DNA from: a virus
Lineage: Duplodnaviria > Heunggongvirae > Uroviricota > Caudoviricetes
Direction: 5' to 3' (one strand)
DNA: 64,000 nt
IMG/VR virus record: IMGVR_UViG_2939521961_000011
Positions 59,673 to 60,144 of this stretch are shown one piece after another (the stretch's first letter is position 1; each line of letters opens with the position of its first letter). Both the position numbers and the translations under genes were made by a program. A model generated the notes under the pieces. That model was not told the DNA's origin and searched no databases. It saw nothing but the letters and a program-made list of their open reading frames with translations.

Positions 59673-59864
59673 ATGAATAGAGCCCTTTCACCAATGGTTT
59701 CTGAATTTGAAACCATTGAACAAGAAAACAGTTACAACGAATGGCTGCGTGCGAAAGTAGCAACGAGCCTTGCAGATCCGCGCCCAGCAATTCCCCATGA
59801 CGAAGTTGAGCGCAGAATGGCAGAACGCTTTGCTAAGATGCGCAAGGAACGGAGCAAGCAGTAA
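59673..59864 (+). CDS. type II antitoxin (ParD/RelB-like)
   Basis: 63 aa; GGAGGA RBS; stop is 1 nt before the toxin ATG. Confidence 0.55.
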   Translation: MNRALSPMVSEFETIEQENSYNEWLRAKVATSLADPRPAIPHDEVERRMAERFAKMRKERSKQ

Positions 59865-59865
59865 A

Positions 59866-60144
59866 ATGTTACCCGTGTTATGGCTTGAAAGCGCAGATAC
59901 CGACCTAGATGATATAACTAGTTATATTGCTCGTTTCGACATAGATGCGGCTGAACGCTTATGGCAGCGATTAAGGGGTTGTGTGCTGCCGTTATCCGAA
60001 CATCCGTATTTATACCCACCAAGCGACAGAGTACCTAGCTTGCGTGAGATTGTAGCCCACCCTAACTATATAATTCTATACCGCGTAACAACATCAAGCG
60101 TTGAAGTAGTAAACGTGATCCACGCAAGACGCCAGTTTCCCTAA
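59866..60144 (+). CDS. ParE/RelE-family type II toxin
   Basis: 93 aa with C-terminal HPNYIILYRV...VEVVNVIHARRQ typical of ParE/RelE. Confidence 0.6.
   Translation: MLPVLWLESADTDLDDITSYIARFDIDAAERLWQRLRGCVLPLSEHPYLYPPSDRVPSLREIVAHPNYIILYRVTTSSVEVVNVIHARRQFP

Follow-up and report, generated by a model that had tools for sequence, protein, structure and literature searches.

The paaR2-paaA2-parE2 system of O157:H7 prophage CP-933P

The closest described relative of the locus reported here is the three-gene operon paaR2-paaA2-parE2 of the Escherichia coli O157:H7 prophage CP-933P, a system that is already known in detail, so that the locus itself is not new. A study by Jurenas et al. (mBio, 2021; PMC8630535), which dealt with exactly the CP-933P region and cites Hallez et al. 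2010 and Sterckx et al. 2016, describes the operon structure (after Hallez 2010) and assigns to PaaR2 the role of a CI analogue: paaR2 takes the position of cI and dicA, its leaderless mRNA is translated from a start giving the N-terminus MQKKE, and the autocleavage domain of CI is absent from the protein. PRM933P and PR933P, a divergent pair of promoters, lie in the 97-bp region between paaR2 and ydaS, as do repeats of the GTTTAGT type to which PaaR2 as well as YdaS binds; YdaS was reported to bind the operators and to act like Cro, and YdaT was described as a CII analogue activating a PRE-like promoter. Beyond parE2 lies the promoter PL933P, with −35 and −10 hexamers identical to those of PR933P and three OL operators, which is repressed by PaaR2 and YdaS (PMC8630535). 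The motif TTGATTN6AATCAA is given as the YdaT recognition sequence in another source (PMC9986795).

The antitoxin PaaA2 of O157:H7, which is devoid of a DNA-binding domain, associates with ParE2 in a cooperative manner and is subject to degradation by ClpAP and ClpXP; ParE2 itself is found at the nucleoid and triggers the SOS response, its exact target being, according to the authors, still to be found (PMC8630535). The CP-933P locus is bistable and is transcribed in both states of the switch, and the operon, with or without ydaST, improves the maintenance of an unstable mini-F plasmid via post-segregational killing; the authors, who call CP-933P cryptic, proposed that the toxin–antitoxin (TA) pair stabilises the prophage immunity region. 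Activation of ParE2 in single cells was detected in neither transcriptional state, and proposals for the natural trigger and role of the toxin are therefore still hypothetical. Toxicity, neutralisation, co-transcription with the repressor and post-segregational killing are thus all published for this system (PMC8630535), for which crystal and NMR structures, operon mapping, footprinting, single-cell bistability data and plasmid-stabilisation assays already exist.

The coupled gene pair and its protein relatives

The window analysed here is a stretch of 64,000 nucleotides from a virus of the class Caudoviricetes (IMG/VR record IMGVR_UViG_2939521961_000011), containing two prophage regions, referred to below as prophages 1 and 2. 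Between the CI-like repressor gene of prophage 2 (ending at 59652) and a PL-type promoter (60229-60256), followed by a ydfA-like gene starting at 60431, lies a pair of translationally coupled genes, placed exactly as the initial annotation had it. [quoted passage not shown] The features of the region, and of the corresponding region of prophage 1, are listed in Table 1.

Table 1. Features of the immunity regions of prophages 2 and 1, with positions in the window
Feature	Position	Strand	Basis
ydaT, 141 aa, functional analogue of lambda CII	58459-58884	-	Pfam YdaT_toxin, 40.9 bits
YdaT recognition palindrome (predicted) TTGATTTTCATGAATCAA	58874-58891		ydaS/ydaT junction; match to TTGATTN6AATCAA
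ydaS, 100 aa, Cro analogue	58881-59183	-	Pfam YdaS_toxin, 46.5 bits, and HTH_3
Divergent operator/promoter region, 97 bp (PR, PRM, OR; CP-933P type)	59184-59280		length and O157 identity
paaR2, CI-like repressor, 123 aa, first gene of the operon	59281-59652	+	PDB 7NKV/8C3K; N-terminus MQKKE
paaA2, antitoxin, 63 aa	59673-59864	+	identity to PDB 3ZBE/5CW7/5CZE; Pfam PF21217
parE2, toxin, 92 aa, S57 allele	59866-60144	+	PDB 5CW7 chain B, 91/92; Pfam PF05016
Stable hairpin directly 3' of parE2	60163-60209	+	22-nt arms, 3-nt loop; 19 nt past the parE2 stop
PL-type promoter with OL operator repeats (PL933P equivalent)	60210-60263	+	PR-identical hexamers, repeats
DUF1391/ydfA-like gene, first gene of the PL operon (context, not TA)	60431-60583	+	Pfam DUF1391, 91.8 bits
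YdaT-like gene, prophage 1	11738-12259	-	
Cro-like DicC, prophage 1	12243-12473	-	
DicA-like repressor, prophage 1	12557-12964		
DUF1391/ydfA-like gene, prophage 1	13131-13283		

The antitoxin frame, as read from the sequence, begins with an ATG at 59673, preceded by a GGAGG Shine-Dalgarno motif at 59664-59668, and ends with a TAA at 59862-59864; a single base (A 59865) separates it from the ATG of the toxin frame, which runs to a TAA at 60142-60144. The initial annotation had described a 63-aa antitoxin and a 93-aa toxin coupled by a stop, one nucleotide and an ATG; the coordinates, the antitoxin length and the spacing hold, and the toxin has 92 residues, the figure of 93 counting the stop codon. 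Both products score far above the Pfam gathering thresholds (70.7 bits for PaaA2, PF21217, with a cut-off of 27; 60.2 bits for ParE_toxin, PF05016, with a cut-off of 23), so that neither frame is a chance open reading frame.

Residues 2-63 of PaaA2 are identical to PaaA2 of the PDB entries 3ZBE, 5CW7 and 5CZE (E = 5.5e-37). The only Pfam match of the 63-aa protein is the 33-position PaaA2 toxin-binding motif, and the Pfam search detected no DNA-binding domain in it. NCBIfam places the protein in the 'RelB family', which disagrees with Pfam and PDB in name and not in biology. That label, together with the tight stop-1 nt-ATG coupling and the framing adopted by the initial annotation, would fit a canonical two-gene type II system, autoregulated by its own antitoxin and standing beside an unrelated phage repressor by chance. 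Such an arrangement is very improbable: the antitoxin consists of a toxin-binding motif with no detected DNA-binding domain, paaR2 ends only 20 nt upstream of the paaA2 start codon, the scan called neither a promoter nor a terminator in that 20-nt gap, and the published operon mapping contradicts it. The layout found, with a regulator gene on the same strand directly upstream of the antitoxin and toxin genes, is that of the three-component paaR-paaA-parE systems, their co-transcription being known from the literature (PMC8630535). A tblastn search of the window revealed no paralogous paaR1-paaA1-parE1 copy.

ParE2 is identical in 91 of 92 residues to chain B of PDB 5CW7, the "Plasmid stabilization protein ParE" of E. 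coli O157:H7, the sole change being G57S; the same chain of 5CZE gives the same figure, so that the RelE/ParE fold assigned to the protein is backed by crystal structures. The next-best PDB relatives are also ParE toxins (6X0A, 3KXE and 5CEG, E about 5e-5 to 3e-4), and the Pfam ParE_toxin model is matched end to end (residues 4-91 correspond to model positions 1-89 of 89). The toxin had been called "ParE/RelE-like", which is correct as to the superfamily and needs narrowing as to the type. A RelE-type toxin, i.e., a ribosome-dependent mRNA endonuclease rather than a protein acting on DNA topology like the gyrase-poisoning classical ParE toxins, could be read from the fold common to RelE and ParE, from the RefSeq name "RelE/ParE family toxin" and from a weak match to RelE_StbE (TIGR02385); the score of that match, however, is 20.7 bits, under the cut-off of 27.9, and the O157 protein is the nucleoid-colocalised, SOS-inducing one mentioned above (PMC8630535), which makes a RelE-type activity extremely improbable. 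Judged by its sequence, since the PF05016 match is complete, the structural relatives are ParE toxins and TIGR02385 stays below its cut-off, the toxin is ParE-type and not RelE-type.

Repressor, operators and the proposed switch

Residues 1-66 of PaaR2 are identical to the 'Phage repressor protein CI' of PDB 7NKV and 8C3K, and its N-terminus, MQKKE, is that obtained by protein sequencing in the published work (PMC8630535); compared with the O157 protein, one residue differs (V67 vs G67). The operator/promoter region upstream of paaR2 is identical in sequence to that of O157 and has exactly the published length (PMC8630535). On the minus strand, the promoter scan found a PR-like site, TTGACT-18-TAAACT, at 59241-59212, and on the other side of the operon a PL site, TTGACT-16-TAAACT, at 60229-60256, with the same hexamers. 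The motif GTTTAGT occurs four times in the 64-kb window, at 59194, 59213 and 59252 in OR and at 60216 in OL, a number that is not enriched in itself (4.8 expected) and is informative in that all four copies cluster at OR and OL. Operator-like repeats at 60216-60229 and 60238-60251 include inverted matches to the OR region, and the repeat families are common to both operator regions. The stretch containing PL and OL does not differ from O157 until position 60264, where the 5-bp sequence CCAAC of O157 is missing, about 7 nt past the −10 hexamer of PL and near the expected transcription start.

The ydaT gene matches its counterpart in O157 FRIK944 at the DNA level, and the protein in that strain and in O26 is the same RefSeq entry, WP_000693943.1. 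The predicted YdaT site is the single match to TTGATTN6AATCAA within the 64-kb window, a weak observation when taken alone, as 23 of 100 shuffled sequences contained at least one match at up to one mismatch. Divergent ydaS-ydaT, a 97-bp OR with GTTTAGT repeats and a PL whose hexamers equal those of PR together identify the region as an immunity region of the CP-933P type.

Directly downstream of parE2, the RNA is predicted to form a stable hairpin; folding of 60140-60232 gave −24 kcal/mol (z = −4.7), a value equalled by none of 200 shuffles. No canonical T-run follows the stem immediately, and the terminator scan did not call the hairpin, which may nevertheless act as a terminator or 3' stabiliser of the operon mRNA ahead of PL. 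A promoter-like match inside parE2 (59885-59913) was rejected as a chance hit, the scan having returned five promoter-like sites with 2.7 ± 1.6 expected, and so was a minus-strand terminator-like match at 60283-60265 (two terminator-like sites, 1.7 expected). An Rfam search at gathering thresholds over 58459-60600 found no known RNA antitoxin or small RNA overlapping the locus.

Prophage 1 carries an immunity region of a different type (DicA/DicC, Qin type). The interval between repressor and ydfA-like gene measures 166 bp there, close to the ~170 bp given earlier, vs 778 bp in prophage 2. A palindrome, TGTTAG(C/T)CATG(A/G)C(T/A)AACA, occurs twice in the prophage 1 interval, at 13000-13018 and 13034-13050, and again between dicC and dicA (12488-12507); it differs from the operators of prophage 2. 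The initial annotation had placed DicA operators in this interval, and the pattern of repeats makes it plausible that the palindromes are such operators. Over 70 aligned residues, the C-terminal part of PaaR2 (residues ~53-119) and that of the DicA-like repressor are homologous, with 29% identity (E = 2e-6), and PaaR2 gives a sub-threshold match to the DicA model NF007257 (E = 1e-6), in keeping with the published placing of paaR2 in the position of cI and dicA (PMC8630535); no similarity was detectable between the N-terminal DNA-binding parts of the two repressors. This suggests that both proteins may have a common oligomerisation module combined with different operator specificities.

As the locus is near-identical to that of O157:H7 (99% for ParE2), the mechanism worked out there can be carried over; identity, gene order, spacing and conservation of regulatory sites come from the window, and toxicity, neutralisation, operon structure, killing and bistability come from the O157 literature. 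Transcription from the PRM-like promoter in the 97-bp region would yield a leaderless paaR2 message reading on through paaA2 and parE2. PaaR2, as the CI analogue, would bind OR and OL, repressing ydaS-ydaT and PL, and would activate or repress its own operon depending on dose; competition of the Cro analogue YdaS for the same sites would create a bistable switch, in which the CII analogue YdaT would turn on a PRE-like promoter. PaaA2 would form a tight complex with ParE2, wrapping around the toxin and so neutralising it. After loss of the operon, ClpAP and ClpXP would remove PaaA2 and free ParE2, whose association with the nucleoid, induction of SOS and arrest of growth would amount to post-segregational killing; such addiction would keep the immunity region, and hence the prophage, from loss or replacement by recombination. 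The S57 form of ParE2, the V67 form of PaaR2 and the 5-bp deletion near PL are expected to behave like the O157 versions. The role in prophage maintenance suggested at the outset agrees both with these sequence data and with the published work on the near-identical O157:H7 locus (PMC8630535). As for the role in superinfection immunity proposed along with it, the location given for the pair, beside a CI-like repressor gene within the immunity region, is right, but immunity would be conferred by PaaR2 and its operators and not by the TA pair.

Mosaic context, distribution and comparison with known systems

The DNA alignment was made against E. coli O157:H7 strain FRIK944. Between 59100 and 60420, only three differences were found: T/G at 59480 (PaaR2 V67/G67), A/G at 60037 (ParE2 S57/G57) and the missing CCAAC. 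Leftward to 57200, there are five substitutions and a 1-bp insertion in a poly-C run near 57406. Rightward, the identity with O157 CP-933P stops sharply at 60420, leaving 10 nt to the start codon of the ydfA-like gene: prophage 2 continues with a Rac-like arm (ydfA-like gene, kilR, ydaE, recE, recT and ralR, according to the annotation of O26:H11 strain 11368), and O157 with an ECs_2282-family gene, ydfC, dicB, ydfD and an exonuclease gene. The part of the window from 52400 to 64000 is 99.8% identical to O26:H11 11368. The extra C at ~57406 relative to O157 falls in a DnaC-like replication gene (ORF 56726-57457, minus strand), whose first ~15 codons it puts into another frame; in O26:H11 11368, this gene bears the annotation 'frameshifted'. 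Because of this insertion and this annotation, prophage 2 may be replication-defective.

Of 5426 complete E. coli genomes, 633 carry the 472-bp paaA2-parE2 pair, 577 of them with at least 99% identity; it is almost always a single chromosomal copy, and the carriers include strains of O157:H7, O26, O111 and O121. The whole segment from paaR2 to PL also occurs, at 98% identity, in Escherichia phage Evi (LR597642.1), a coliphage from infant faecal samples (PMC10910852), in which paaA2 is intact with a K54R substitution and labelled as a hypothetical protein, and parE2, at 4683-4961 of LR597642.1, is intact with the G57 allele and unannotated in the deposited record. The description of CP-933P as cryptic and the DnaC-like gene, with its 1-bp insertion relative to O157 and its frameshifted status in O26 11368, might suggest that the pair is an inactive relic in a decaying prophage. 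This is highly improbable: both reading frames with their ribosome-binding sites, as well as paaR2, operators and promoters, are intact and differ very little from those of the functional O157 locus, and the pair is conserved at 99% identity or more in those 577 genomes.

Another proposal is that the pair is mainly an anti-phage module acting by abortive infection or exclusion, expressed in the lysogen together with the repressor in the manner of rexA-rexB; this would be compatible with addiction. It would accord with the position of the pair between the CI and PL analogues and its co-transcription with the repressor, as for rexA-rexB between cI and PL in phage lambda, with transcription of the locus in both switch states (PMC8630535) and with the presence of an intact module in an isolated coliphage, Evi. 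Against it, searches of PADLOC-DB v2 gave no family at E ≤ 0.01 for PaaA2, ParE2 or PaaR2, family searches showed no similarity to RexA or RexB, the top-ranked abstracts of a literature search mention no defence or superinfection phenotype for PaaA2-ParE2, and the published data favour post-segregational killing (PMC8630535). A principal role in defence is accordingly quite unlikely, and an addiction module within the immunity region is preferred.

An extension of the addiction reading would make the TA pair the 'glue' of a mobile immunity cassette, stretching at least from 57200 to 60420 and comprising the DnaC-like gene, an O-like gene, ydaT, ydaS, OR, paaR2, paaA2, parE2 and OL/PL, which might in addition exclude heteroimmune phages as rexAB does. 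The same immunity-plus-TA cassette occurs on different prophage backbones, where the sequences part abruptly just ahead of the first PL gene, and also in an isolated coliphage, which fits the published idea that the TA pair protects the immunity region when prophages recombine; we nonetheless regard the extended proposal as speculative and rather unlikely. If it were true, killing by ParE2 of recombinants that lose the cassette would skew the survival of immunity types when lambdoid prophages recombine.

The practical value of the result lies mainly in annotation. RefSeq annotates a type II TA pair in the O26 and O157 genomes, naming the antitoxin "RelB family antitoxin" (in some genomes "hypothetical protein"), the toxin "RelE/ParE family toxin" and the product of paaR2 "hypothetical protein"; PaaA2, ParE2 and PaaR2, respectively, ought to replace these names. 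Nor is the product annotated next to them as 'toxin YdaT family protein' a toxin; it is a regulator of the CII type.

Several other elements were seen in the window. A second, unrelated TA pair lies in prophage 1 (6895-7266 and 7259-7576, plus strand), with the toxin gene first and an 8-nt overlap, an arrangement resembling HigB/HigA; its 123-aa product matches Pfam RelE (PF06296) with 161 bits, and its 105-aa product contains HTH_3. Each prophage has a hok/sok type I TA locus (7829-8003 and 53896-54070, both on the minus strand; Rfam sok, 117 and 113 bits), annotated as hokD or Hok-Gef in related genomes. The small RNAs include DicF, an antisense RNA of prophage 1 located upstream of dicB (14482-14533, plus strand; Rfam, 75 bits), and, in prophage 2, AgvB (anti-GcvB; 49609-49670, plus strand, 96.5 bits) adjoining STnc100 (49671-49860, minus strand, 147.8 bits), a second copy of which is found in prophage 1 (744-913, minus strand, 102.4 bits). 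Prophage 1 also gave matches to C4 antisense RNA and isrK (8712-8796 and 8822-8896, minus strand), an antirepressor control element of the P1/P7 type, and its late region contains a cluster of three tRNA genes (3553-3799, minus strand), for which the related genome CFSAN027343 has the annotations Arg, Arg and Ile.

Compared with the known systems, the locus stands closest to paaR2-paaA2-parE2 of CP-933P in O157:H7 EDL933 (Sp12 of strain Sakai), with which it agrees in genes, order, spacing, operators and promoters, differing in S57 of ParE2, V67 of PaaR2, the CCAAC deletion and the Rac-like early-left arm. The DicA/DicC region of prophage 1 has the same plan, in which Cro-like and YdaT-like genes diverge from the repressor gene and a ydfA-like operon follows, but, unlike prophage 2, it has no TA pair between the repressor and ydfA. 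The ParD-ParE type II systems of plasmid RK2, Caulobacter and Vibrio have toxins of the same Pfam ParE_toxin family and likewise cause addiction by post-segregational killing; the antitoxin here, however, is PaaA2 and not ParD, it has no DNA-binding domain, and regulation is performed by a separate CI-like repressor. Finally, the lambda cI-rexA-rexB operon likewise has accessory genes co-transcribed with the repressor, located between the repressor gene and PL and flanked by OR and OL; in contrast to rexAB, with which no sequence relationship was observed, the function demonstrated for the PaaA2-ParE2 pair is addiction and not exclusion, and PaaR2, unlike the lambda repressor, is devoid of the CI autocleavage domain.
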